The notes under the pieces were generated by a model that saw only the letters and a list, made by a program, of their open reading frames with translations, had not been told where the DNA came from and ran no database searches. A DNA stretch of 62,861 nucleotides, filler included, from Sphacelaria rigidula (Eukaryota), in NCBI GenBank assembly GCA_964200075.2. It is 10 parts of 10 records of this genome, joined end to end, with 100 filler letters (N's around TTAATTAATTAA, not from the genome) between each part and the next. Parts side by side here need not be neighbours in the genome. Positions count along the whole stretch, not along the records: positions 25,187 to 31,382 come from CAXNAA020021592.1; 9 more parts are not named here. One strand, given 5' to 3'. Below, one piece after another: positions 6,198-57,009 of the stretch. Every line of letters starts with the position of its first letter. Position 1 is the stretch's first letter. Position numbers and translations under genes: made by a program.

Positions 6198-6297
6198 NNN
6201 NNNNNNNNNNNNNNNNNNNNNNNNNNNNNNNNNNNNNNNNNTTAATTAATTAANNNNNNNNNNNNNNNNNNNNNNNNNNNNNNNNNNNNNNNNNNNN
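6198..6297. other. Artificial scaffold linker N44-TTAATTAATTAA-N44 (first of nine)
   Basis: Equivalent 100-bp linkers at 6198, 12495, 18791, 25087, 31383, 37679, 43975, 50271 and 56567. TTAATTAATTAA gives stops in all six frames. Confidence 0.98.
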
Positions 6298-11262: not shown

Positions 11263-12791
11263 AAAGTCGGTCGGGTCGGTCAATCGATCGCTCATTCTAT
11301 CCTACCGAGGTGTTAGACCTATGCAATGGGCATTCGTGTACGCAGGGCTCGGATTGCGTCGCATGGGCATATCATAAAATGCCGATAAGAGCTCCTTCAA
11401 GATTGAAGAACCTGGGCATGCGGCGTACGATCTTCTCCAAAGCAGCATAATTTCCGCTGTTCTGTCGTACTACATTCCGGGGCAGAAAGGGACGGATCCT
11501 CCCCAGCACGGCAAACACAAACACACACAAACACAGACACGCAGAAACACACAACATTCATTTCAGATTGCAAATATCTTAGGAGGCTCGGAGTGTCCCA
11601 AAAAAGGATTCCCCCCTCTTCGCCCCCCCCTCCCGTCCAGTGTGGTATCTCCCAACTTTTTTTCGATGAGTTTTATTTTAGTTCATTCTGCACTCTGATC
11701 CTGCTGAAATGACGGAAAAAAAAACGTTCTCCCAAACTCTCTATTGATAGATCGATTTGTCACACATCATCTGGCTCCCGACGAATGCAGACTATTATAG
11801 GCCAGTCATTGGATATACGAACCCAAAAACATGTGGTACCAACAACACTATTATACCACACAACAAAATATTTCACACACACACGTCGGAAAGCTTACGA
11901 TGAGAGTGATGCTACGGCAGGGGTACACAAATATTTTCTGAGGTTAGAATTGTTAGAAGCCCTTTATCTTATCCAAAATACGACGTATGAAAATATGCGA
12001 GAGTACGCCAGGATTACTATTCCGATGTGCTGGGGATATCCCGAATGAATCTGCAAACGGGGATGCCCTGGCGCATATTCTTGTGCGTCTAGAATCGTTA
12101 GGAGCCCCTGAACCAGACGAAATTTCGCGAAGAAAGTGCACCCCTACCGTAGCATTGCTCAGGAGCTGACTGAAATTACCAACCGACGAGAACTCTCAGA
12201 CCCGTTGTCCAAAAACACAGAATACGTGACCGCGGGGTCAGAGAAGCCAAAGCGATACCTTTGCGCTACTCCGCGTGCTGGGCATCCAGCGCTGTAGGGG
12301 GGAAATATGAGAAAGGGGGTCAAACGAGGTAGCTCATGATCCGATTCAGTACGGCAATAAAAAGTAATACTCAGGTAGCTCATGAGCTGTCCATCGTGTG
12401 CAGTATTTCACGGTTAGGACGAATCATCACGACTACGAATCGCCAAATCCACGATTTCTTCGGCCTGATTGCTCAAAAGGGAGAAAAAAGTTGANNNNNN
12501 NNNNNNNNNNNNNNNNNNNNNNNNNNNNNNNNNNNNNNTTAATTAATTAANNNNNNNNNNNNNNNNNNNNNNNNNNNNNNNNNNNNNNNNNNNNGGAGGA
12601 GGGAGGAGAGGGGATGGGAGGGGGGGGGGGGGGCTCGAATATAATGAAGACGAACTTCGGAGCTTGATTCTTGTACATGTGCAGATATATATGTATATGA
12701 ACTTGAAGGTTTTCAGGTTCAAGATCATCCAAGAGCTCACCACAATTATTTGCTCGTCGGATTGCTGACTCCTCCACTCAAGTCGTTCATC

Positions 12792-18790: not shown

Positions 18791-19815
18791 NNNNNNNNNN
18801 NNNNNNNNNNNNNNNNNNNNNNNNNNNNNNNNNNTTAATTAATTAANNNNNNNNNNNNNNNNNNNNNNNNNNNNNNNNNNNNNNNNNNNNACGAGAGCGC
18901 CCCCCCCCCCCCGTCCCGGAGGACGATTTTTCGAAAATTGTCACAATTACGAGCTGAGTCAGCCTGAAAACGGATTTAAGTTCTAGAAGCAATATCTCAT
19001 CGACACAGTGAGCTGCGCCGTGATCCGCATATCGTATTAATTGTTCAATCAAGGGGAAGGTGCCCATCTGCTCAAAAATCTGGGCCAATATTTTCTCGTT
19101 GGTTGAACCCCATGTCTAGTAATTCCTATACCGTACGACGATAGCGCCCACACTAAAATCCATATGAGACCCCGAACAATACATTCAGCGGATGATGATT
19201 TTTGGTGTAGACCTTCCCCGGAGCACGGGGAGACGATAGGTACCCTCACTTTCACCTAATTCATGATCTATCTCGAGATATGGCGCACATAAATTTCCAT
19301 ACTAAAATCAATATATTACGAGCGGAGGCACCGGATAAATCAAATCTGGATATCGCGTCTCAGTTATTGCGAATTGTTCAATGAAATCTCGTAGGGAGAA
19401 CCGCTAGTGCATAATAATGATGAAAACAGCTTTTTTTTTTACATTTTTTTGTTTTTTTCGTGCCTTTAGTGGAGTTTTGAGGAGAAATGAACATTGCTCT
19501 TAGGCCTCATCTCAATGCATCAGCCCAATTTTAAAAACTGTGATTTGAAACTCAGCATGGAGAACCACGAAGATGTGCCGAAAAAAAATGGGCCTTTTTT
19601 TTTTTTTTCATAGAGCTCCCGTGAAGAAATGGACTTTATTATCTAGAACGCCCTAAACTAATGAACAAATAAAAATAAACAACCTGACCCACTGAGTTTT
19701 GTCAATTATGCCCTAGCGAGGACCCACACAAGATTTCAATACACAAAAACCAAACGCGGGCCGGTGAGTGGCTTGCGAAATACTGTTCCGATTTTCGACC
19801 GACCCGGTTTTTAAA

Positions 19816-20574
19816 AGGCGAATGCGCCAGCCAATATTTAAAGTTGGAGCTGGTTGGAGCGTAAAATTTGGTATGGGCAATGCATAGCGTATAAAGAAAA
19901 AAATACATGAGCACCAGAGGGTTTTTTTGTTTTTATGAGTTAGGCTATTTCTTGTGTATCAAATAAATGAATCTTGTTGAAAAGAGCATTTTTGGCCCTT
20001 CCTCGTCGTTTTCCCCCCGAAAAGAGGGCTAGACAAATGTTGACTCTGTGGAATGACTTGCTCTACTCGCTGAGACGGTTCCAGAGCACCTTGGCGTTTC
20101 CCGTAGGTCAGAGGTTCGCTCTCGGCCAAAACTGCGTTTTCAATAACAAACGGTCAAGTTATCAAAACACAGGAGGAAAACTGACATTTTTTTGGTCACT
20201 TGACAGTTCGTTATTGAAAATGCAAGGTTGACCAAAAACCAAACCGTGACCTACGGAAAACGCAAAGGTGCTCTGGAACGGCCTCAGCGAGTAGAGCAAG
20301 TCATTCCAAGGTGTCAACATCCGCCTAACCCTCTTTTCGGGGGAAAAACGACAGAGAAGGGCCAAAAATGCACTTTCCAACGAGTTGTATTTTCTTATCC
20401 ACAAGAAGTAGCCTTCAGGGCAATAATCAGTCTTCAGGTATCAACAAGATGCCCTTAACTCACGGAAAAAAACGAAAACCTTCTGGTGCTTCTGTAAAAA
20501 AAAAATCATGCCCGATGCATTGTCCGTACCAAATTTTACGCCCCAACTCTAAATATTGGCCGGCGCATTCGCCT
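19816..20574. repeat. Imperfect palindrome of about 760 bp (foldback element or internal arm pair of a larger TE)
   Basis: aggcgaatgcgcc...ggcgcattcgcct. The arms align inward (e.g. ggaatgacttgctctactcgctgag / ctcagcgagtagagcaagtcattcc) to a centre near 20180. No clear TSD. Confidence 0.85.
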
Positions 20575-21785: not shown

Positions 21786-22957
21786 CAAGAGTGAGTACAT
21801 CACCTATTTCAGCCCAAAAGTAGGCACAGGTAAACGCGCAAGTTGGAACTGTCCGTGCTAGGCCCAAACCTCTCAAAAACCAATCCCGACGCTACGGCAA
21901 GGCGCCAACAGCCCATGCAGAGCATGTTTACCAACTTTCGAAAAAAATATGGCGCGATCCAGGGCCGAGCAGCACCGCGGGAACCAAGAACCTCCAGAGT
22001 ACCCTACTTTGTCCGACCGTGGGGGTAGATACACCCGCCAAAAACTCATATGTTTATCTTTTGCCCTTTTTTGTCTCATAATGTTTCCTATCATGTCCCA
22101 AGTGTATACCCCCTATTTCACCACTATCGGCCTGACACAGCCGCCGTCCAACCCACCGCCCGACACAAAATCGCGAATGACCGAAGAACATCTCCAGCGC
22201 TTCTTTGTACATGTTTCTACGGCCTGGAGCCTCAAGACCCCGCCGTCGGCATGTTCCATCCAAACAAAACGAAACTCCCTGTTGAGTGATTGACACATCA
22301 CATGACCAGTGGGCGGGCGCGCGCGGAGACGGCATAACAAGTCGCGACATGCGCAACACGATGCAAACTGCACAAAAACTTGCGGATCCGGAACACAGCA
22401 TAAACGGCACGACAACTTGTTTTGTATTTCGCAACTTGTTATGCCGTCTCCGCGCGCGCGCCCAACGCGCGTGCGGTGTGTCAATCACTCCGCAAGGGTC
22501 TCGTTTTCTTTGGGGTGGAAAACACCGACGGCGGGGTCTTGAGTCTCCAGGCCGTAGAAACATGTACATTCGTTTTTGTGCCGTGCGGTGGCTTGGACGG
22601 CGGCTGTGGTAGGCCGATAGTGGTCAAATAGGGGGTGCACTTCGGACATACTAGGGAACATCATGATACAAAAAGGGGTAAAAAATGAGCACATGAGTTT
22701 ATGGCGGGTATATCTACCCCCATTTTCGGGCAAAATAGGGTACTCTGCGAGGTTCTTGTTTCCCCCGGTGCTGTTCGGCCCTACGTCGCGCTATATTTTT
22801 CGCAAGGTTGGTATGAATGCTCTGCATGGGTGTGCGCGCCTTGCCTTAGCGTCGGGATTGATTTTTGAGAGGTTCGGACCAAGCACGGATAGCCCCAACT
22901 TGCGCGTTTACCTGTACCTGCTTTTGGGGCGAATAGGCGGTGATGTACCCACTTTTG
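21786..22957. mobile_element. Foldback non-autonomous DNA transposon of about 1.17 kb, TA-flanked
   Basis: ta|caagagtgagtacatcacc ... ggtgatgtacccacttttg|ta. The arms align over more than 500 bp to a centre near 22390. Confidence 0.85.
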
Positions 22958-24054: not shown

Positions 24055-24102
24055 CTACTGCAAGCTACTGCAAGCTACTGCAAGCTACTGCAAGCTACTG
24101 CA
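24055..24102. repeat. (CTACTGCAAG)n tandem repeat, about 5 copies, intronic
   Basis: Read directly. Confidence 0.95.
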
Positions 24103-25186
24103 TGCGAGTTGGTAGCTTTCCCGTTCAATTTGATTGTCCTCAGGTTGCTTGTCCTAGCGGGAGACCTGTGCCATCAACAGCAATCAAGATTCCGTCGGAA
24201 CATACCAACAATTCACTGTCCATTTATTTTTGGAGAATCAAAGATTCTCCAGCACAATCCAGGCAACAACGGGCAGTGAACTCCGTAGTACAGTGGGATC
24301 TCCGGAACCAGATACATCTTTGAAAGCATCCACAAGTCATGTCTTTTCAAAAATTCGGCGCGGCTATTGCAGTAATCGACCACCCGATCGGTCGTTCACT
24401 CGAGCTCGTCCTATCCATCTGGCGATCAAAGCTAAACTCGGCTCTCACTAGATATTGCAACATGCTGCGAGGGCAACACTTACCGATACGGCATAGTAGT
24501 AGCTGGATTGAAGACAGCTTGTTTTCGTTCGACTGAATTTTGTTCAGTCTGTTCTGCAACGGCCGTATGGTTCAGCAGGAATCCGCCTCGATGTTCACTC
24601 TTCATCTGGTGCAGAAAATCCCTTCAACGCATGGCCACGCGGCATACGGTGCAGTGCTGTGCGCTGAGCACGAGAAAAGAGTGGAAATTGATTGTTTTCA
24701 CGTAGCAAGCGTTTCCAACGAGGTTTCGTGAGATTGAGAGTCTAGCTCCTGATTGAGAGTGAGCTTTTTAGCCATATGCGGAATCCGCATCATTCCTACT
24801 TGAAAATTTTCTGCGTGACCCTGATTCGCAATCCTGGCGATCAGAGGGTTAATATTTCAGAAAGTTAGTCGTTGGATGCATGATGTGGAAGCTAATAAAC
24901 GCAGTTACACGATTTTTTGGAATCGCGACAGATCAAGCTCTATACTTGCATCCAACATATTAATCGGAAGAATTTTTTAGGATTACATGGCATTATGTAC
25001 GGCAGGTAATCATAAGGTGCTCAACGTACACCAGCGCATTGATAAGGGGGTGTACTCATGATCATGCATGCCATAGTCATAAGACCNNNNNNNNNNNNNN
25101 NNNNNNNNNNNNNNNNNNNNNNNNNNNNNNTTAATTAATTAANNNNNNNNNNNNNNNNNNNNNNNNNNNNNNNNNNNNNNNNNNNN

Positions 25187-28100
25187 TATTTGCAGGATCC
25201 GTGCAGCCCAGGAGGAACTCCCCCGCCCCCTTTGGCATGCATGATTATGAGTACCCCCCCCCCCCTCCGTCAAATGAATGAGTACGCCCCCTCCGTCAAA
25301 CATGACCTCTGGTGTCATGGCAGAGCACCGCGCTCCCATGACGCCACTGGCAGAGACACGGGCGGATGTTTTCACCATCTAAAGAGAACGATCTTTCCAA
25401 AGCAAGAGGTTGTGCTGAAATCCATCCATGCAGATGAAACGAGTTTACTGAGGTTGGAAAATCTAATTTTTCTCCGCACCATTCATGGGCCAGCCATCTG
25501 GACTGCTCTGTGCTGCACATACAGCACAGCACATTTAAGTTCAACGCAGTACAGAGCATTGTGCTGTCGGCGAAGTATATATGATCAGCTTTTTTGTGCC
25601 CAAGTGCGTCGATAACAACAAGAAAACACCATGTGCTGTACAAGTGCTGTACAAGTGTGTACATGGCAGTATGATAACAACGCACTTAAGTCAGCTCCTG
25701 CAAACCGCGAGGGTGGTTTTAAATCTGGGGGTCGCGTTGTACACGCAAGAATATACAACCCGCTCTTAGTGTCCCTAGCGGGAGAAAGAGTGCAACTTGG
25801 GAATCTCACACCTGGAATCAAACAATCTTCGACGTGGATAGACATATCCCAAGTTGACATGAGCACAGGTTTCGACATGTCAATTCAAAGGTACTACCGT
25901 CACACACGATAGAAAACATATGCCTCCGTTGCCATAGGCCGCGGCAACATGAGAACAGCAGGGTGGATGACAAGCTCCATAAACAAAATTATGTCCAACC
26001 GTCCACCCGACCACCCTCTTGGACATGCACTCGCGGGAGATGTGGAGGACCCCTAGGGCTAACTCATGGGGTGCAACGTCCGGGCGCCTGATGAGACGCC
26101 GTCCGGGGCAGTGTGAGTGTCACGTACGGCACCAAAACAGATCCCGAGGTTACAGCATCTTCAGCTCACTGTTGTGGTGATACCCTGCCAACTATCGAAG
26201 GTGATGATCGCACGCTCTTCGCTACTTCTTTCACGTGATTGTGGCTTTCGAACGAAACGCGGGACGCCTGCATGCATGGACAATATACGCGCACAAGAAA
26301 ACCCCGACTCCGACTCTTGAACTGTTATGATGGCAGAGAACTGAGATCTTGCCCCCATATGCCGGTGTTTCATGTAATTCGGGTAGGTAGTGAAACATGT
26401 GCATATCTTCGGCTATCATCCCTCGCCAACACATTCCACAAACGTGGTTGAGAGAAGTTTTCGACCGATAAACATTGAACGTGCAGTGCCGATGGAAAAA
26501 GACACGAGGGCGATCGCCGGGGGCCACGCCGGCCACGCGGGCGCAGTGCGAGAGGATCTGAGCCCCCAGTCCTACGGGAAACACAGGGCGACTGCACTGT
26601 TCAGTGACTCTCGGGCGCCAGGATGTGCATCGCCGTGGTATACCGGTGTTACAATTTTTAGTAAATATCCTCCGTAAATATTCTGAAGGGGCGAAAAAAT
26701 CAAAGCATATCCCCCTGACACACATTCATATTTCGCCATTATCACCCCGTTGCCCGCTTGATTCGTTCCCGCCGTGTTACCTGCTCAGGTTGAGGGCACT
26801 CGAGCAAGAGTCTTGTTGTGCAATGGATAAGATCTACCTGCCCCGGCGCAGAGCAGCTGGATCCGTACTACGTGGTGCATGGTCATGTCGTCGACTATGC
26901 CGTCGAGGCGTACAGGGAACCTCCTCAGCCCATCATGGCGTGTGGATACCTGGCAGTCGAAGCCTACCGCGCGGCAAAGGTGCGCACTGAATAAGCGGAC
27001 GCCAGGACAGGGCTGGTTGTGCTTGCATACGACGACCCTAACACAGCGGGAATTATCAAGGTGCACAAACAACGAGGGCGAATGGATAAGCTCGAAAAAT
27101 GCGGCACGAGCTTCCATCCAACATCCACGAAGCCTCTTCCCCGCGGGCCACGCTTCCGGAGCCTGGTTCGCAAGACCAGCAAACATGTCCGGAATTATCG
27201 AGCCGCTAGTGCGTTCAAGCGGATACTACTCGAGAATAACGAAGGACCGTTGATCGTCACCTACGGGGTCAGCATGCCGCCTATTCTAAGTGGTTTGACG
27301 CCAACGGCTGTGGCGGGAGTAAGAGGGCACGTTGGACGGGAGCGGGGGGAGAGAGTGGGAACGACGGCGGCCGCAAGGTGCGGAGGAATGCGATTCCGCA
27401 GTGGAATGCGGCAGTAATGATGGGTGAGCTACCGTGGAGCGTAGAGGGGGAGGAAACGATAGTGGCGACTTCACGCGCGAGCATTTTTGGCGGCGGGCTG
27501 GCGGTTACGGCCCGCCAGTGGGATTCACCGGTTGTATCAAGTGGATAGGGGGAGGGAGGAGCGGCGATGCCGCCGATGGCGGCAACTGCGGCATGCGGAG
27601 GCTTCGACGACGGAGGTATGGCAGGGGCGGCCCCGCGGACTCATCTTGCGGCGGTGACGGGCCAGCAATCAAGCGGGGCTCCGCCGGTGTCGTTGTCAGC
27701 GCCGAACGCTGGTTTTCGCACCCGGGCAGGGGTTACGGCGATCACACAATCGTATCTTGCCGCGTTGATAGGCAGCGAGAGGGGGGAAGGCGGCGGCAGG
27801 AGAATCACAAGCGCCAAGTGCGGCGCTCCCCCACCCTTCTACTCGTGGCTCGCAACGTCACCTGTTTGTGGTGGCTTCATGGTCGTGATCCTGATCGGAG
27901 TATTCACAGCGCACCTGGACCCGGCATAGGTGAGGGAGAGATGTCCACAGTCCACTTCATCATACACTCCGGAAGGTTGTTCGGGAAATCTATGAAGAAG
28001 TGGCTCTTGGCTTCCATGGATACTGATCAGTGGATTATTGTACTCCTGGCCACGTCCTCCCGATATATCAAGCCGCATGGCTCAGACGCTGTGCAAGTCT

Positions 28101-29500
28101 CTGTCAAACGCGTCGTGAATGGTGACCCCCGGTACATACTAGTGAACCGGGTACACAGTGCGCTCGAGAATTTGAGGGACGGGCGCGAGAGTGCTTGGCC
28201 GCCCGACGGACAGTACGGTTGGCTGACACCGTCACTCAAGGTGGCACTGTTCGTCTTCACGTATATGTTGGCCGGGTACGAATTTTTACCACATGTGTCC
28301 GGGATTCCTTTCCTGAAGATGCGGAATTCCGTCCTGAAGGACATTCGCACGCCACATATCTTCACAAGAGCGATACTGGTGGACAAAGACGGGGTGATGA
28401 GGGTGCATGGGGACGAGGGCATAAAGCTGATGGCCACAGTTTTATTTTCAAAGTACGAAACGCTCTTGCACACGTCGCCGCGGATCCGGGACTTCTGTTC
28501 GCCACGTGCGGGCAAGACTTGGTGTCGTACGTGAACAAGATCCGCCTGTGTATCACCACCGTGCATGGGCGTCTGCCTTCCCGCTGCTGCCAAGACTTGG
28601 ACGCCTGTAGGAAGCGCGTCAGTAAGTCCGATGCAGTGGCCGAATACTGGGGGAGGAACTTTCTAGACAGGATGCCCATAGTAGAGTCCAACAGACGCGG
28701 GTGGGGCATGGAACCAGAGAGGAGGACTCAACGAAAGGATGGTGTAAAATCGACGGGCATAGCGGCGGTGGAGCTCGCACGCGACAACCTTGTCGTGTAC
28801 TTGTCGAGCCACATGTACGTCGACACATGCGGGAGCGTGCGAACACTCAGATAAACATACAACCCGGAAAAGGCGGCGACAAAACACAGATGCCAGAGTT
28901 ACAGGTGTTTGGGGAACTGCATGCTGAGCTGCCGTTGCCAGGGCCACTGCTTCCTGCCCCAACCCTCTTTACGAGCGACCGCCGACAATCCCAATCGTGA
29001 AACTGGCGACGGACACAGCGGTGCACGCGGCCGATCTCACAACGGGAGAAGCCGGTCAACAGCAAAGCATACAAGGGGCAGGTCGACTGCACCACGTGGA
29101 AGGGGCGCGGCGTCTGCAGCGAGCAGCGCGCCAGGGGCACCTGTTGATATGGCTGATGGTGAGAAGCCTTGCTGGCGCGACGCGGGGAGGGAGGTGGTAG
29201 GGAGAGATTTTCCGGGACCAGATCCGATCAGTGCAACCGGCGGTGGAGACGGCAGTGCACGCGGCCGATCTCGTAACGGGAAAGGCTGGTCAGCAGCGAA
29301 GCATTCAAGGGCCGAATCGGCTGCACCACGTGAAAGGGGCGCGGCGTCTGGAGGAAAATGGGTACGGGTAGCGTATCCCAAGATCCGATCAGTCGCAGCT
29401 TCTGCAGTGGTGGATGAGATGAACCCATCGGACCGAGTCGAACTGTTCAGCCGGGATCTGGATTGGAGGCTTAGATTCAGAATTCAACTGGTCCGGGAGT
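25187..29500 (+). mobile_element. Degenerate AcademX-like DNA transposon coding region (transposase remnants + PIN/XPG nuclease + CXC finger)
   Basis: Motifs occur in order across stops and frameshifts: VVDYAVEAY (~26887), LAYDD..IIKVHKQRGR (~27020), GIGEGE (~27925), SMDTD (~28015), YMLAGYEFLPHVSG (~28260), RVSKSDAVAEYW...RGWG (~28620-28710), RCQSYRCLGNCMLSCRCQGHC (~28890-28950). The upstream transposase-like motifs are weak and no TIRs were found. Confidence 0.6.
26881..28960 (+). pseudogene. PIN-fold (XPG/XRN-like) 5' nuclease with C-terminal Cys-rich finger, frameshifted
   Basis: The GEGE, D-x-D and G-x-[DE]-FLP acidic motifs parallel those of XRN/FEN-type nucleases. Stop at ~26992, frameshift at ~28480-28490, stop at 28852. 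Confidence 0.75.
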
Positions 29501-31331
29501 GAGGACTCGGCATCAGAAGCGGGCGACGACCATTATGAAGATGTCGAGTATTCATTTCAGCCTGTAGAGCATGCTGGGGTTGTGTTTTCTGTAGATAGAT
29601 TGCAAACAAGTTTCTGTACGATTCAAGGTTTTTTTTTCCAGGTTGTAATCTTGAACTGTGCCTCGTGTACACAGCGATGATGATTCGTGCATGCGCGGTG
29701 CACCCAACCTGTAGTGCGTGAGGATACGCAATGATTTCAACTGAGGGAGTGTTTCAACGCAAGATGACAAATCAAAACCACACCATGATATGCCATTCGA
29801 CCTTTGCAGATACTGCAGAGTACTGCCAACGCCCGCTCGTCGATTCTATGACGTTCGTACAGGGAGAGAACTGCTGGGAATCATCCGTTTGACCACTGTC
29901 CTGAGCGCTCGGACAAAAAACGTCGGTATCCTTGATACTGCACCATTGCACCGAACCGGAGGGTCGTGTCACCACTGGTCCTCCGAATCACACATCGGGT
30001 CCGTTTCCGCCACGTCTCCCTTTATACCGCTTATTATGGCAAACACAACATGTTGACAACTGCTTTCATTGGTCCTCCTGCTTCGCTGTTGGGCCTGAAA
30101 TATATCTGGGCGGATGTCGCCTCCTTGAAATGCCTTGCTATCATCGTTGGCACCAGTCAGAAACAAATCTGCGGCCATCGGGGAAGGCAACGGTGCCCCG
30201 GATTTTCCTCCCGGACTTGGCTACTTGGGACAAGAGTGTATGTGTGAAAAAAGAAGAGTGCCATCACTAGAAAACATAAAGGTGTCCTGGAGTTTTCTCT
30301 ACGAGTACAGGAAGGCATTTGAAGGTCTCAACACCCCCCTAGCCCCCGTTTAGGACGCAACATGACACAGAGAGACAACGAATTAGTCATGTAGTATTTC
30401 CTCGCTATTGTTTGCTTGCCATAAGAACCGGTCTTCGACGCCAAGAGGTGTCGCTGACGACAAAATGGGTCGGCACAGTACGTGTGGGTATGTACGTTAT
30501 ATCTTGCGCGGCGATCCCATGAGCACACCTCGCACGCCACTCCAGCAACAACGCCATGCACATATTTGTACCGTCCTTTCTATCGACGGGCGGCGCTGAT
30601 GTTTCCACGACCGAGTGCGGAAGAACATATCCACGACTCTGAACACGCCTGAACGCGGCGCATGAGACTGCCCGCTCATTTTGGATACCAGCTCTTTATC
30701 TGATGCGCGTTTTCACCGCATCTTACGTGTCCCAACATCCCCCACTCAGATGGCAATATCTCGATGCACACAGCAGCTGCAGGGACAAATCATGTTGTTC
30801 TGTGTAGCCAAGATGCATATCTATCGGCCCTCCACGTTCCGGCTGCGCAGACCCTTGCCGCAGATGAAAATGTTGAGGTATAATGAGGTTAATCTATCGC
30901 AAAATTTGCACGATCCCGAGAATTGATTGGTGCGATTTTGATGTTGAACGATGGCTGTTAGCAAGTATTACCTGCCTGTTGAGTTTCAGCTTGCTGCCAA
31001 TTGTGAGTCGCGAGTAACAATTGATCACGTGTAGGTCGGCCATATTGGAAAACGACTTTTCGGGTTGTACATATTTCGCCAACTTTTTCGTGTTATCCAT
31101 CGCTCGCTGGTGTGCTGTACTGGGTGGAATTGAACCGGACCTCGACGGAGGCGTAGCTTCAGATATGTGCTGCAGCTGTGTATCACCACCATTGTCATTA
31201 ATCTGCCCCGTCAACTACTTTTAGTCCGTCTGGTCTCATTTTTGGGGTGGTGCTGAACAACGTGACAGTTTCCATGGCGTAACACTGCTCCTTGCAAGCT
31301 CCTTGCGCGATATTCAAACAGAGTAGACTGA

Positions 31332-31382
31332 GCCGGTCGCCCCGGTGGCTCAGTTGGTAACCTCGTAACCTTCTGATGATTG
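31332..31382 (+). mobile_element. tRNA-derived SINE head, truncated by the scaffold end
   Basis: Nearly identical to 43898-43948. A-box TGGCTCAGTTGG present. Confidence 0.7.
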
Positions 31383-31774
31383 NNNNNNNNNNNNNNNNNN
31401 NNNNNNNNNNNNNNNNNNNNNNNNNNTTAATTAATTAANNNNNNNNNNNNNNNNNNNNNNNNNNNNNNNNNNNNNNNNNNNNCGAATTCCCCTAGGTAAA
31501 CCCCGAAAACTGAACCCTGAGAAGAGACATGCGCAGCAACTCAGGATTCATTTTCAACTTTCCAAATAAACCCTGAGTTGCTAAACACCCCAAAGCGTTG
31601 GTGCCAGACTCAGGGTTAGGAATCGGAACTAGACACCCTGCCCCATAACGACCAAAGTTACAGAACACAGCGGTAGAACAAATATCATAAGTGAGGCGAT
31701 AGCGGATGACGTGAACGCCCGCGACAGCGCTGGTGATGGCAGCTAGTTCACAAGGGGGACCCAAGACTACGAGA

Positions 31775-36657: not shown

Positions 36658-38127
36658 GTGAGCACTGAATGGCTGATTCATGAGCAATGCTATGGTTGGG
36701 GTTGCACTTTTTTAGCGAAAATGTTTCTCGGGGCTGCTCGGGGTGTTAGACGAGATCATTACGAGAATCGGCATCAGTTTTACCTGAAAAATACTGAAAA
36801 TGATGCCGATTCACGAAAAGGCTCCCTAGTGTAAACACCATGTTTCTGGGAGTCCGGTCTCCGGAGATTTGGGTTGCACAGTAAGCCCCATATATTTGGG
36901 CTCCTACAAAAAAGAGATCCAGACACAAAAAGTGCAACCTCTACCGTAGCACTGCTCTCATTTTTCTAGGTACTGCTGCGCACTTTCCGATCGTCTACAA
37001 ATCTGTGCGTGACCACGAGATAGACGCACCCACTGTAAGTTCACGAAAACACCCGCTCAAGGAAACTCGAGAAACGGAACAAAATTGCAAACCGAGAATA
37101 GGAAAACAATCAGAATAAACCAACACGAACGCCAGGCTAAGGACTACTGCTGTGAAAGTTTCAATAACCTTCCCCCCCCCCCCCAACGAGTGCTTGCCAT
37201 GGCTCCGGGTAGGAGCATGTATAATGAGCACGGCCGTTGGAAGCAGGTGACGAATTTGCTATCTGAAGACCGCATCACTGGGTAGAGACTGTCAGCCACC
37301 AGCTGTGCAGGACGGAGACACACGCATTGGTACAGCAGGGTCATAAAGAACAAAATAGGAACAAAGTGAAGACACAGAGGGGGCAGAAGAGGATAGAAGC
37401 AAGGAGAGGGAAGAAAATACGAGGGAATAACAAAGAAAATGAAGAGGAACAGGGGGACACAGTCACAAAGCAGAGCAGTGATGGGAAGCACAGAGGATGG
37501 AGCATACCTACGAAACAGGGCGAAGAGTATGAGTCAAAGAGGGAAGGCAACAAGCGATGGGATAAAAAACAGGGATACCAGTTGCCGTGTAACCCTTCCC
37601 CCCCCTCCCCCCTCCCCCCTTCAGCACGCGCCCGCGCGAACCACGCGCCCCCCGCCCCCGGCTCCGGCGGGGTGGCCCNNNNNNNNNNNNNNNNNNNNNN
37701 NNNNNNNNNNNNNNNNNNNNNNTTAATTAATTAANNNNNNNNNNNNNNNNNNNNNNNNNNNNNNNNNNNNNNNNNNNNGTGTCTGCGCTGCGTGTACCTG
37801 AGTTGCAACGCTGAATTAAAGCTATGGGATTGATTCATCACGAGTCGACTCATCATACTGAAACCTAGTAATGATTGGACGAATCATTATTTGTCCGACC
37901 CTTGGACATTTTGGTAGCCTCGGCACGATGATTGTGTGAACCTTCTTATGTGTTCTCGTCCAGCACTCACCCTTTTTTCAACAAGCATCTGATTCCAACC
38001 GTTGCACGTCGTTGTATCCGTCAAAAAACAAGCGAAAGATATTAAAGCAAGAAGAAACCGCGGAAACATCGTCTACGCAAATGTAACACCATCATGTCTA
38101 TTGTCCCGAATATATTGTACCGCGCAG

Positions 38128-43974: not shown

Positions 43975-44332
43975 NNNNNNNNNNNNNNNNNNNNNNNNNN
44001 NNNNNNNNNNNNNNNNNNTTAATTAATTAANNNNNNNNNNNNNNNNNNNNNNNNNNNNNNNNNNNNNNNNNNNNGGGGTTAGGACGTGTTCTCTTCCGTT
44101 CTATAGAGAAAGCGGTCCCTCAGGAGTTGAGTTCAACTTTCCCCCCCCCCCCGGTACGAGTGGTTTGCAGTCAATACCGAACATTGGGTTAGAATCCCCC
44201 CTCCGCCGGAGTTGGATGGGATTGCCTTGTAACTTCGTATTTTCTTGTTTCTCACGAAAAATATCCGAGTTCCCATTGACTCGGAGCTCGACCGACTTTG
44301 TAACATACAGGGGAGAAGAACAAACACGGTAC

Positions 44333-49675: not shown

Positions 49676-51198
49676 CTGCATCGAAATAAAGCCGCCAGAC
49701 AAAATTGCAACCGGTACAGCGCGCAGGGAGGGGGGCCAAGGCCGTTCAATTTTTGAATCGATTTTCGGCAGCGTCAACGTGCATGGATCAGCGAGCCTGC
49801 CTCACTACGCAGCAGATGTGCTTCCGATTCGACTTAGGTTATTATTGCTCAGAACACGCGGGGTTACTTTCTTCAGGAAGTTGTGTAAAACGGCAGGAGA
49901 CACCGCCAGTCATCTCTATTTTCCCTGTTTTGCCCACAACTTATCAAATTATCAACTATTTTTGTGCGGACAAGCAACTGTGTAATGGAGTTTCTAGGTA
50001 CGACCAAAAAAATGTACGTTCATTTCACGGTTACCCCCCGTCTAGAAATGATTTCCGTTGATGTTCAGGACGAGCGGTATCGTTGCGTGTTTTTTTGTGC
50101 GCTCAGTCCTTCCATGAACTGTATATTTGCGCTCTGCTGTAGCGCGCTTCCCTCAACTGGATAGTCGCTGTCGCTGTTCCATCCTTCTGGCTACTATTCC
50201 ATTATTATTATTACTATTATTTCCGCACATTAGTCCGATCTCGCGAACCCGTGGTCAAAGACGTAGGCTCNNNNNNNNNNNNNNNNNNNNNNNNNNNNNN
50301 NNNNNNNNNNNNNNTTAATTAATTAANNNNNNNNNNNNNNNNNNNNNNNNNNNNNNNNNNNNNNNNNNNNTGCCCGAATGGTACTGATATGAACGGTATC
50401 TGGTGACGACCTAGGGTGGGGCAGTTTTCAATATGCTGCTGTATGCTAAATGAAGAGAAGCTCGTATAATCTTGTTCGCGCAGGAACACAGTCGAATAAT
50501 ATTTGTGCGGTTTGCACGTACTGACTGCAGGATATATGGATTGCTGCTGTTTGCGTAAAAAATGAGCGAAAAAAGTACGAAATGCAACTTGAATAGCGGT
50601 TTGAGTCATGGCTTTCCTTTAATTGTCCGAATAAAATGATGGCAAGTTGAAGCATTGAAGCTCTAACGGCGCAGAGGCATGCGATACATACGTTGTTTAC
50701 GTTGTTGCAAAAGTAAGAGGCCAGGTGCGTTTTAGACGTGTTGGGTGCATATTTCCTGCTAGCATGAGGATGATATATCATTCGCCTATTGGACTTCGTT
50801 TTGCAGGTGTTGAACGTACACAGAGTGTATTTTGAATGTTGAGACGATGAGTCACGAATCTTCTGGAGTTCGACGTTTGCTGACATTTGCGGTTTCTTGC
50901 CGATTAAGAGTCAAGAGACTTGTTTTGGGCGAAGATTTGAGAATTCGGCGCTAGCTATCGCTTTGTAACTCGAAGTGGTGCAAGTTGCGTGATTCATGCT
51001 TATGATGGACGATATTTTCTCGGAATCTCTTTCGAGTTGTTCGGAAGTGGGATAAGCTTGTATGGAGCTGTTGTCGAAAGCAGCGGAAGAGATTGCTATT
51101 CTCTACGGAAAACGACGGTACTATCTGGCACCAATGATGTCTGAGTTTATCAAGCTCTGATGTAACTACTCGTTGGTAGTAGAGAGCTTTGAGGGTAC

Positions 51199-55720: not shown

Positions 55721-57009
55721 CACCGAGGATCACGTTCATGATACCTTTGTCCGCTTGTTAGTGACACATGACCATGCAATGTCATGTTGACAAACAAAAT
55801 GATCATTTGCAAAAAGCTTAACAACGACACTTGAACACAGCGTCTCAATCGAACTGAATGTATTCAATAATTCAGCCGCGGCATACTCACAGAAAGCAAA
55901 CACGTCAAGCACAATACCATTTCGAACCGTAGAATTCGATCACATCACGCACTCAAAGCTTGATACCGTACTTTGCCAACAAACGTGCCAGCACCTTTTG
56001 ACTCTGTTCCAACTGACGCAGCTCAGAACAAATACGCGGTGCTCCTTCCAGACAAATGAGTACACCATCCACGTTCTCCGTTTTTCAGATGCGAAACATC
56101 ATCCATGCGCTTATCCAAACACACGACAAACCATCAAAAGACGTGCCACAGTAAAAGATCACTGTATTCGCGCATGATTCTTTCTATCGTCAACCTCTGG
56201 ACATACTCACGTTATACTTGTTCACATAAAAGCCAACGCATTTCGTAGTTTCCGCTCATATTCACGCCAACAGCAGCAATCACCATCTCCTATAGTCAGT
56301 TTCTGTAACCGCACAAAGATTATTCCACTTTTCTGCGCAGAAAAGAGTATGCGAGCTTTATTTCATTCAGCACACAGCAGTGTGTTGACAACTGCCCCAC
56401 TCTGACTCTTCACCAGACACCATGCACATCAGTCACACATGCATGCTAATATTTTACTCAGCAGCTTCTTTGCAGAAACCACCATGTATCATGCGTGCCA
56501 ACAAGAGCAACACAACACACAGATCCAGGAACGACATCACCACCACCTACAATCGTCCGCAAAACGNNNNNNNNNNNNNNNNNNNNNNNNNNNNNNNNNN
56601 NNNNNNNNNNTTAATTAATTAANNNNNNNNNNNNNNNNNNNNNNNNNNNNNNNNNNNNNNNNNNNNCATGCCATAGTCATAAGACCATTGACCTCTCATC
56701 CCTACTAAGCCGGGGCGGAGCACGGAGCGGAGCACAAATGGGGGGGGGGGGAAGGGGGAGTAGAAACATTACAACAAACAGATTTACAGGAACGGTCAGT
56801 CGAAATGTTTTCGGTGGAATTCATTGTTATGTGATGGGTTGAAGAGGGAACGAGGGTCCGCAAAACGGATTCCCAGACGTTCGTTTCTGATGGCCGTGTG
56901 ATACCTCGTCGAACCGAAAACTCATCAACCACAATACCTCGTGGCGCCATGAGCAATGCAGGAATCACACGTTTTGAAGAAAGGGATTGGACATAATCAG
57001 GCTAGAGTC

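Follow-up and report, generated by a model that had tools for sequence, protein, structure and literature searches.

The DNA analysed here (the window) is a joined stretch of 62,861 nucleotides (nt) from the Sphacelaria rigidula assembly GCA_964200075.2, and the feature under study lies on a single contig of 6196 nt (CAXNAA020021592.1, positions 25187..31382 of the window) that stands separate between artificial 100-nt linkers. This contig carries the broken coding remains of a 5' nuclease split by a Gly/Ala/Arg-rich linker, a conserved domain, a cysteine cluster and a low-complexity tail, which together are probably the relic of an AcademX-like transposon. An original prediction, made from the sequence, had proposed such an element (transposase, nuclease and CXC finger) at 25187..29500. 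Position 25187 is the first base of the contig and no more, and the motif-bearing region is 26794-29551. The parts and motifs are as follows.

26429..26793, plus strand, possible remnant of the linker between transposase and nuclease (homology not significant)
26794..27372, plus strand, N-terminal half of the 5' nuclease in frame 1, with the first Asp in HVVDY, the second in LAYDD, and a TAA stop at 26992-26994
26884-26898, plus strand, HVVDY, frame 1
27022-27036, plus strand, LAYDD
27052-27081, plus strand, IIKVHKQRGR
27373..27865, plus strand, Gly/Ala/Arg-rich linker within the nuclease, 62-70% G+C, in frames 0 and 1 by comparison with the related protein P0002
27866..28468, plus strand, C-terminal core of the nuclease in frame 2, with GEGE, SMDTD and the helix-turn motif AGYEFLPHVSG
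27929-27940, plus strand, GEGE, frame 2
28013-28027, plus strand, SMDTD
28271-28303, plus strand, AGYEFLPHVSG
28441..28851, plus strand, conserved domain after the nuclease in frame 1, with AEYWG and RRGWG
28639-28653, plus strand, AEYWG, frame 1
28693-28707, plus strand, RRGWG
28852..28960, plus strand, decayed CXC-like cysteine cluster, opening with a TAA stop at 28852-28854
28885-28950, plus strand, the cysteines of the cluster
28961..29551, plus strand, low-complexity tail with an acidic end and two further frame changes

All motifs listed in the original prediction were recovered on the plus strand of the contig at their expected coordinates. The fragmented reading frame that it described is also present, with two TAA stops (26992-26994 and 28852-28854) and at least four frameshifts. 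The coding path runs in frame 1 from 26794 to 27417, in frames 0 and 1 from 27594 to 27867, in frame 2 from 27866 to 28468 and in frame 1 from 28441 to 29352, and reaches 29551 through two more shifts; the changes of frame fall near 27767-27802, 27866, 28441-28468 and 29352-29429, and an extra base at 27865 causes one of the shifts. Upstream of the nuclease, frame 1 runs into it across a single TGA (26791-26793). This copy is a pseudogene that is unable to make a protein, an ordinary dead fragment with no function of its own.

Decay is also visible in the residues that remain. The N-terminal half of the nuclease reads GHSSKS against KHANK in relatives, and the helix-turn motif reads GYEFLP against GCDFLP (Cys to Tyr, Asp to Glu). 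In the cysteine cluster, the first C-x-C of the relatives is lost behind the stop and one Cys has become Tyr. The relatives' ordered set of acidic residues, mapped to the catalytic residues of solved enzymes by motif order and not by residue-level superposition, is kept in the window copy except for the last, the Asp of GCDF, which is replaced by Glu. The tail contains a direct duplication of 132 nt (28988-29119 and 29222-29353, 80% identical, 234 nt apart), and the tail of the relative P0009 carries the same repeated peptide theme.

P0009, a 628-residue protein of S. rigidula, is colinear with 27866-29551. A tblastn search of the contig with P0009 matched 27866-28468 (E 2e-95, 74% identity) and 28441-29352 (E 4e-107, 65% identity), and the N-terminal half of the nuclease (26857-27372) matched P0022 with an E value of 1e-10. 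Because of these strong matches, the motifs of the window are not due to chance. Word-indexed searches with the nuclease core gave 7 matches among 200 scored candidates and 1 among 1034, and 6 of the 8 were named as S. rigidula. A phmmer search with P0009 retrieved 268 cluster representatives (50% identity clusters) at an E value of ≤1e-3, with 142 at ≤1e-10 and 33 at ≤1e-30. Among the matches listed (150), lengths range from 62 to 605 amino acids (aa), so most members of the family are fragments. Twenty proteins were looked up; ten of them carried a species name and all ten are brown-algal, from S. rigidula, Ectocarpus sp. CCAP 1310/34, Pylaiella littoralis and Nemacystus decipiens, in line with the brown-algal host that had been proposed.

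The family is also abundant in raw sequence. Six sequencing runs, none of them listed as RNA, contain the contig or part of it. Contigs assembled from four sequencing runs cover 25187-31382 at ≥80% likeness in large numbers: 10,379 in run X1, 8,341 in X3, 10,522 in X4 and 813 in X6, the last being RNA by guess only. The related contigs span all identity classes, with more transitions than transversions. At 26993 and 26994, most of them read G at both positions, giving TGG instead of TAA, and the base at 27865 is missing from some (5 in X1, 5 in X3, 8 in X4 and 3 in X6); both lesions are therefore private to the window copy. X6 contigs are spread over parts of 26947-29637, with 80-90% likeness. 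That X6 is blank at 26222-26428 and gives low figures beyond 29741 does not mark boundaries of the element, and the lower summed depths upstream of 27464 do not represent copy numbers. The family is dispersed, multi-copy and decaying. In place of single-copy host genes, which would have spoken against a transposon, the opposite was seen, namely, 268 clusters and thousands of diverged contigs, and the description of the locus as a decayed copy holds for a multi-copy family made up mostly of fragments, in which this member has a broken frame.

Relatives that include the N-terminal half of the nuclease (P0015, P0013, P0022 and P0016) present acidic motifs in a fixed order, as follows: VDLPV-IHQG, YDR, GE[AG]E, DTDQ and GCDFLP. 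No relevant Pfam family was found for 11 pieces of the window at an E value of ≤1. XRN_N gave no match at E ≤10 in P0009, P0002, P0015, P0157, P0161 and P0162, nor at E ≤1 in the window pieces, and XPG_N and XPG_I were unmatched in the family members tested. A sequence search of the PDB with P0009 returned chance rows only, with E values above 6. By sequence, the nuclease belongs to no Pfam family.

The fold was examined with an AF2 model of P0015 built from a 20-sequence alignment. The model is of moderate quality, with a mean predicted local distance difference test score (pLDDT) of 61.5, rising to 70-93 in the C-terminal half, and a predicted template modelling score of 0.62. In a Foldseek search of the PDB, the first 15 rows are all XRN1, XRN2 or Rat1 (E 4e-3 to 8e-2, probability about 1), with no match at E ≤1e-3. 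VIA-align, run over 48,161 chains, placed XRN1 (3pie_A) first, with a Z score of 8.5 and a root mean square deviation of 4.7 over 257 aligned residues, a range in which, by the tool's own warning, a Z near 8 may reflect a common arrangement. Four more XRN chains follow at Z 7.2-7.7, completing an all-XRN top five, and behind them stand EXO1 (6.8), XPG (5.8), T5 exonuclease (5.7), GEN1 (5.6) and FEN1 (5.5). The BFVD results are also led by giant-virus exonucleases of the XRN type, which fill 11 of the first 12 rows. All 30 of the nearest Atlas clusters lack a Pfam family (score 0.95, mostly arthropod records); the named Atlas leads are TCR, Pox_G5, XPG_I and XRN_N, at 0.78-0.84, and serve as leads only. 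On the modelled fold, the domain is a member of the FEN/XPG/XRN superfamily of 5' nucleases and stands nearest to XRN. The suggestion of a PIN-like nuclease with XRN-style character agrees with this, as Foldseek, VIA-align and BFVD all rank XRN first.

A metagenome scan with the family alignment returned eight loci, each sharing only about 50 residues around the helix-turn motif. Two of these, L004 (1585-5070) and L005 (9383-12256), were considered as family members and rejected: they are long open reading frames with an EXO1-like N terminus that have only LLAGCDYLP in common with the family, and they are ordinary eukaryotic EXO1-like genes.

The relatives carry nine cysteines after the nuclease, in the pattern CxC...C..CxC...C...CxC...C, ahead of a low-complexity tail that is acidic at its end. 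TCR (PF03638) gave no Pfam match at E ≤10 and no PDB sequence match was obtained; the Atlas lead is a cluster in which 36% of the members carry TCR (score 0.84). By its Cys pattern and this lead, the cluster resembles CXC zinc clusters. The Cys-rich finger proposed to follow the nuclease thus appears to be present, in decayed form in the window copy.

The transposase requires a distinction between the window copy and its relatives. A profile search limited to long proteins matched 2 of 8000 scored candidates, P0161 (1802 aa) and P0162 (2285 aa), both from N. decipiens, and both have about 1130 residues upstream of the nuclease in the same gene model. The two proteins are colinear, at 37-38% identity, over this upstream region (P0161 478-711 and 846-1137) as well as over the nuclease. 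The region was compared with RNase_H_Academ.hmm, a hidden Markov model (HMM) of the RNase H-like transposase domain of Academ that derives from alignments of Yuan and Wessler and from Repbase entries (Muszewska et al. 2017, PMC5751038). In all, 246 of the 465 nodes of this profile were examined, in 10 parts, with log-odds taken from the printed emissions. Four blocks of P0161 fit it, as listed below.

P0161 688-697, hydrophobic strand and G-D-x-x-x-Y, on nodes 186-195 with 15.0 bits
P0161 719-744, G-x-x-H ... G-x-G-x-E, on nodes 220-245 with 17.2 bits
P0161 853-886, R-T-G-D ... P-I-F-x-x-T-G ... Y-Q-x-L, on nodes 375-408 with 36.6 bits
P0161 919-924, L-D-E-x-x-E, on nodes 449-454 with 9.6 bits

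The blocks are gapless and colinear with the profile and sum to 78 bits, as placed by eye and free of gap costs. P0161 matches all of the near-invariant nodes H223, R375, Y401, D450 and E454, and P0162 retains the G-D-E-Q-T-Y, R-Y-Q-F-L and L-D-E-x-E-E motifs. By our own uncalibrated estimate, for a search space of about 1,137 by 465, the chance expectation of the 36.6-bit block by itself is about 5e-6. Nodes 16-40, 67-91 and 322-347 have no clear anchor in P0161. For nodes 198-205, the colinear placement was preferred to one on an 'AVEAW' stretch farther upstream in P0162. Catalytic roles for individual nodes are putative; as far as could be tested, the relatives do encode an RNase H-fold DDE transposase core of the Academ type.

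The same part of P0161 matches a Pfam family of undefined function. Residues 685-935 align with profile positions 104-369 (of 410) of DUF6589 (PF20231), a sub-threshold match with 22.3 bits and an E value of 6.3e-5, and in the Atlas, 20 of the 30 clusters nearest to P0161 560-1010 carry DUF6589, on 18-31% of their members. Since DUF6589 and the Academ profile fall on one stretch of P0161, DUF6589 may be the Academ transposase core. DUF6589 has been reported as enriched in rust fungi, and its Atlas taxa are Mucoromycota and Arthropoda; this distribution would fit such an identity.

Within the window, no transposase is detectable. No match upstream of 26797 came from a tblastn search with P0161 and P0162. 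An HMM of their two transposase-like regions, run against all 2347 six-frame pieces of the window, gave nothing above background in the contig; its best match anywhere in the window (E 0.63) lies on another contig. The upstream segments that the original prediction had listed as weaker ones, QYDN (25667-25678) and FRTKRG...QEN (26246-26302), exist as strings and are no better than chance, the HMM being blank there. Since no transposase is detectable upstream of 26797, the window copy is classed as a truncated relic and not as an autonomous element. The assignment to an Academ lineage therefore stands for the Nemacystus relatives, with their four upstream blocks, but not for a transposase in the window.

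Taken together, 26794-29551 (perhaps from about 26430) is probably what remains of an AcademX-like cut-and-paste transposon, a copy now dead and truncated at its 5' end, whose family is abundant in brown algae. The homology, the decay, the high copy number, the nuclease fold and the fusion in two Nemacystus gene models are shown by the data, whereas catalytic roles and the mode of transposition are inferred. As part of the same reading, intact relatives probably encode one long protein in which an Academ-type RNase H-fold (DDE) core is followed by the 5' nuclease and by the CXC cluster with its acidic tail; the window copy keeps the nuclease, cluster and tail only. The S. rigidula subfamily itself may likewise include a transposase. 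In the proposed mechanism, the transposase would cut and join the ends of the element, the fused nuclease, presumably metal dependent, would process or trim the other strand or 5' flaps at the donor or target, and the CXC cluster would bind DNA.

A number of results weigh against this reading. In the window, they comprise the empty tblastn result upstream of 26797, where the G+C content is also lower, together with the lack of a readable target-site duplication (TSD) and of a terminal inverted repeat (TIR) pair bracketing the element. The contig holds eight short inverted pairs, the best being 42 nt at 71%, and none of them makes convincing TIRs for this truncated copy on its 6.2-kb contig. 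In the relatives, Pfam retrieved no nuclease or CXC family at E ≤10 for P0009, P0002, P0015, P0157, P0161 and P0162. P0161 and P0162 are predicted gene models from one species and not complementary DNAs, and P0162 is without the middle of the transposase core. The four blocks, with 76 of the 465 nodes, fall short of a complete alignment to the HMM, and among the nodes examined the first catalytic Asp could not be placed in P0161. The DUF6589 score lies below the curated cut-off of 27, with no match in P0162, and an AF2 model of the transposase-like region, built from two sequences, is unusable (pLDDT 35.5).

One other explanation dispenses with the transposase. In it, the nuclease-CXC gene of this genome acts alone as a selfish gene or forms the repeated part of a different, undescribed mobile element, and the link to Academ in Nemacystus is lineage specific or an artefact of gene prediction. 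It would account for the blank upstream region of the window, for the lengths of ≤605 aa among the 150 listed relatives, of which those fetched hold nuclease or CXC parts only, for the scarcity of long fused proteins (2 of 8000 scored candidates), and for P0015 and P0160, which begin with a Met just ahead of the nuclease. However, P0159 extends upstream past the Met at which P0015 supposedly starts, and frame 1 of the window likewise extends upstream of the nuclease across one TGA. Short gene models are what decayed repeats are expected to give, and two gene models that are about 62% different share the same order and junction, so that we regard this explanation as unlikely, while giving it some weight.

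The structural results raise two further explanations. The top BFVD matches are XRN exonucleases of giant viruses, with E values from 7e-4, a viral XPG_I cluster (0.79) is among the Atlas leads together with Pox_G5 (0.80), and integrated giant viruses are known from brown algae (PMC12993054); the locus might then be a fragment of an endogenous phaeovirus or other nucleocytoplasmic large DNA virus with a viral XRN/FEN-like nuclease. Yet the viral matches share 11-16% identity and none is from a phaeovirus, and a scan of IMG/VR gave one weak locus (L009), which has just 49 residues in common with the family, at and near the helix-turn motif. A family of 268 clusters (50% identity), with diverged contigs by the thousand in a single organism, suits a transposon better than a viral insert, and the relatives are fused to a transposase-like region, which leaves a viral origin very improbable. 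The nearest solved structures are the cellular XRN1, XRN2 and Rat1, which could instead point to a pseudogene of a host XRN-like or asteroid-like family of repair or RNA-decay genes. This we consider just as hard to credit, as XRN_N, XPG_N and XPG_I of Pfam are unmatched, the family is highly repeated and mostly broken, and a CXC cluster and a transposase-like N terminus stand in place of the XRN C-terminal domains.

Starting from the AcademX-like reading, a more far-reaching and tentative proposal is that brown algae possibly carry an undescribed, perhaps transcribed, Academ lineage whose transposase is joined to a CXC DNA-binding cluster and to a 5'→3' exonuclease that is XRN-like rather than XPG-like, with the exonuclease resecting or trimming 5' strands at the cut ends and DUF6589 representing the Academ core. 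If this were true, second-strand processing in Academ would fall to a dedicated exonuclease instead of the transposase.

Outside the element, the contig and its neighbours present other repeats and the joints of the window.

31331..31382, plus strand, end of the contig, where a tRNA-like repeat of very high abundance begins
6198-6297, 12495-12594, 18791-18890, 25087-25186, 31383-31482, 37679-37778, 43975-44074, 50271-50370 and 56567-56666, artificial linkers (N around TTAATTAATTAA)

The window is composed of 10 stretches of about 6.2 kb (the eight complete ones 6196-6197 nt) with nine linkers between them; TTAATTAATTAA recurs every 6296-6297 nt, nine times in all, and is always embedded in a 100-nt run of N. 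Because the window consists of unrelated contigs joined by linkers, the sequence beyond 25187-31382 is not genomic context. At the 31331-31382 repeat, loose ends reach a summed depth of 481,360 in X1. Past 31382, hundreds of contigs per run carry on with T-arm-like sequence, and the contigs sharing this repeat diverge into A/T-rich DNA upstream of 31331-31334. The repeat may be a tRNA-derived short interspersed element or a tRNA gene family; ARAGORN reported no tRNAs in the window. The start of the contig (25187-25393) is another high-copy repeat, which recurs inverted at 25046-25076, at the end of the previous contig (31-nt arms, 90% complementary), and the assembly appears to be broken at repeats.

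Upstream of the nuclease, 26015-26221 is matched in each of the four runs by far more related contigs than the sequence around it, has no Rfam match, and is probably a separate small repeat; Rfam gave no matches at E ≤1 over the whole contig (25187-31382). The previous contig contains nested long inverted repeats at 21808-22933 (arms of 35-118 nt, 79-89% complementary), forming an imperfect palindrome of about 1.1 kb, and a separate 163-nt hairpin-like inverted repeat at 20005-20352, which may be foldback elements or similar to miniature inverted-repeat transposable elements. A short tandem array with a 10-nt unit, CTACTGCAAG, lies at 24055-24104.

Academ is among the least characterised superfamilies of eukaryotic DNA transposons. 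A literature search returned no account of Academ in brown algae or other stramenopiles, a result that is not proof of absence, as Repbase Reports and the supplements of brown-algal genome papers lay outside its scope. A transposase-nuclease-CXC lineage that is well sampled in brown algae would allow a study of the reasons for which some cut-and-paste transposases require a 5' nuclease. With its help, a large share of the 'unnamed' brown-algal gene models could be annotated as transposon relics, and it would suggest an identity for DUF6589.

Among known nucleases, XRN1 and XRN2 (Rat1) provide the best structural matches and share the order of the acidic motifs with the family, whose motifs in the style of G-E-G-E and D-F-L-P-H also resemble XRN. 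The family differs from them in its low identity (12-18%), in having no Pfam XRN_N match and no XRN-specific C-terminal domains, and in a domain that is split by a Gly-rich insert and fused to a transposase and a CXC cluster. EXO1, XPG, FEN1 and GEN1 share the superfamily fold (Z 5.5-6.8), and the helix-turn motif LLAGCD[FY]LP is common to the family and to the eukaryotic EXO1-like metagenome genes; in contrast, their structural scores are below those of XRN, XPG_N and XPG_I are unmatched in the family, and the MGI-type N terminus of the L004 and L005 reading frames is absent from it. The nine-Cys pattern of the relatives and the Atlas lead recall the CXC cluster of tesmin/TSO1 (Pfam TCR), whereas the spacing differs and Pfam gives no match.

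Academ and AcademX are said to have been described by Kapitonov and Jurka in 2010 and by Kojima in 2020, and the abstract of the latter reportedly has AcademX encode a transposase and an XPG nuclease in one protein. With AcademH, the family would share the transposase superfamily, but the accessory enzyme is here a nuclease and not a helicase, with no helicase domain matched in P0161 or P0162. According to the literature, Academ can carry a RecQ helicase and AcademH occurs in fungi. The TSDs of AcademX (3-4 bp) and AcademH (9-10 bp) are related there to the enzymes encoded, nuclease or helicase, respectively (PMC10045372). The closest likeness is to AcademX: four colinear blocks in the transposase-like region of the relatives match the RNase H-like profile of Academ, the same gene models (P0161 and P0162) continue into a 5' nuclease of the XPG/FEN/XRN superfamily, and the brown-algal family is multi-copy and decaying. 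It differs from AcademX in the window copy, which is without the transposase part, in its brown-algal hosts, in a nuclease that by its modelled fold seems nearest to XRN and not to XPG, and in the CXC-like cluster of nine cysteines that follows the nuclease. The family would thus extend the AcademX-like group to brown algae.

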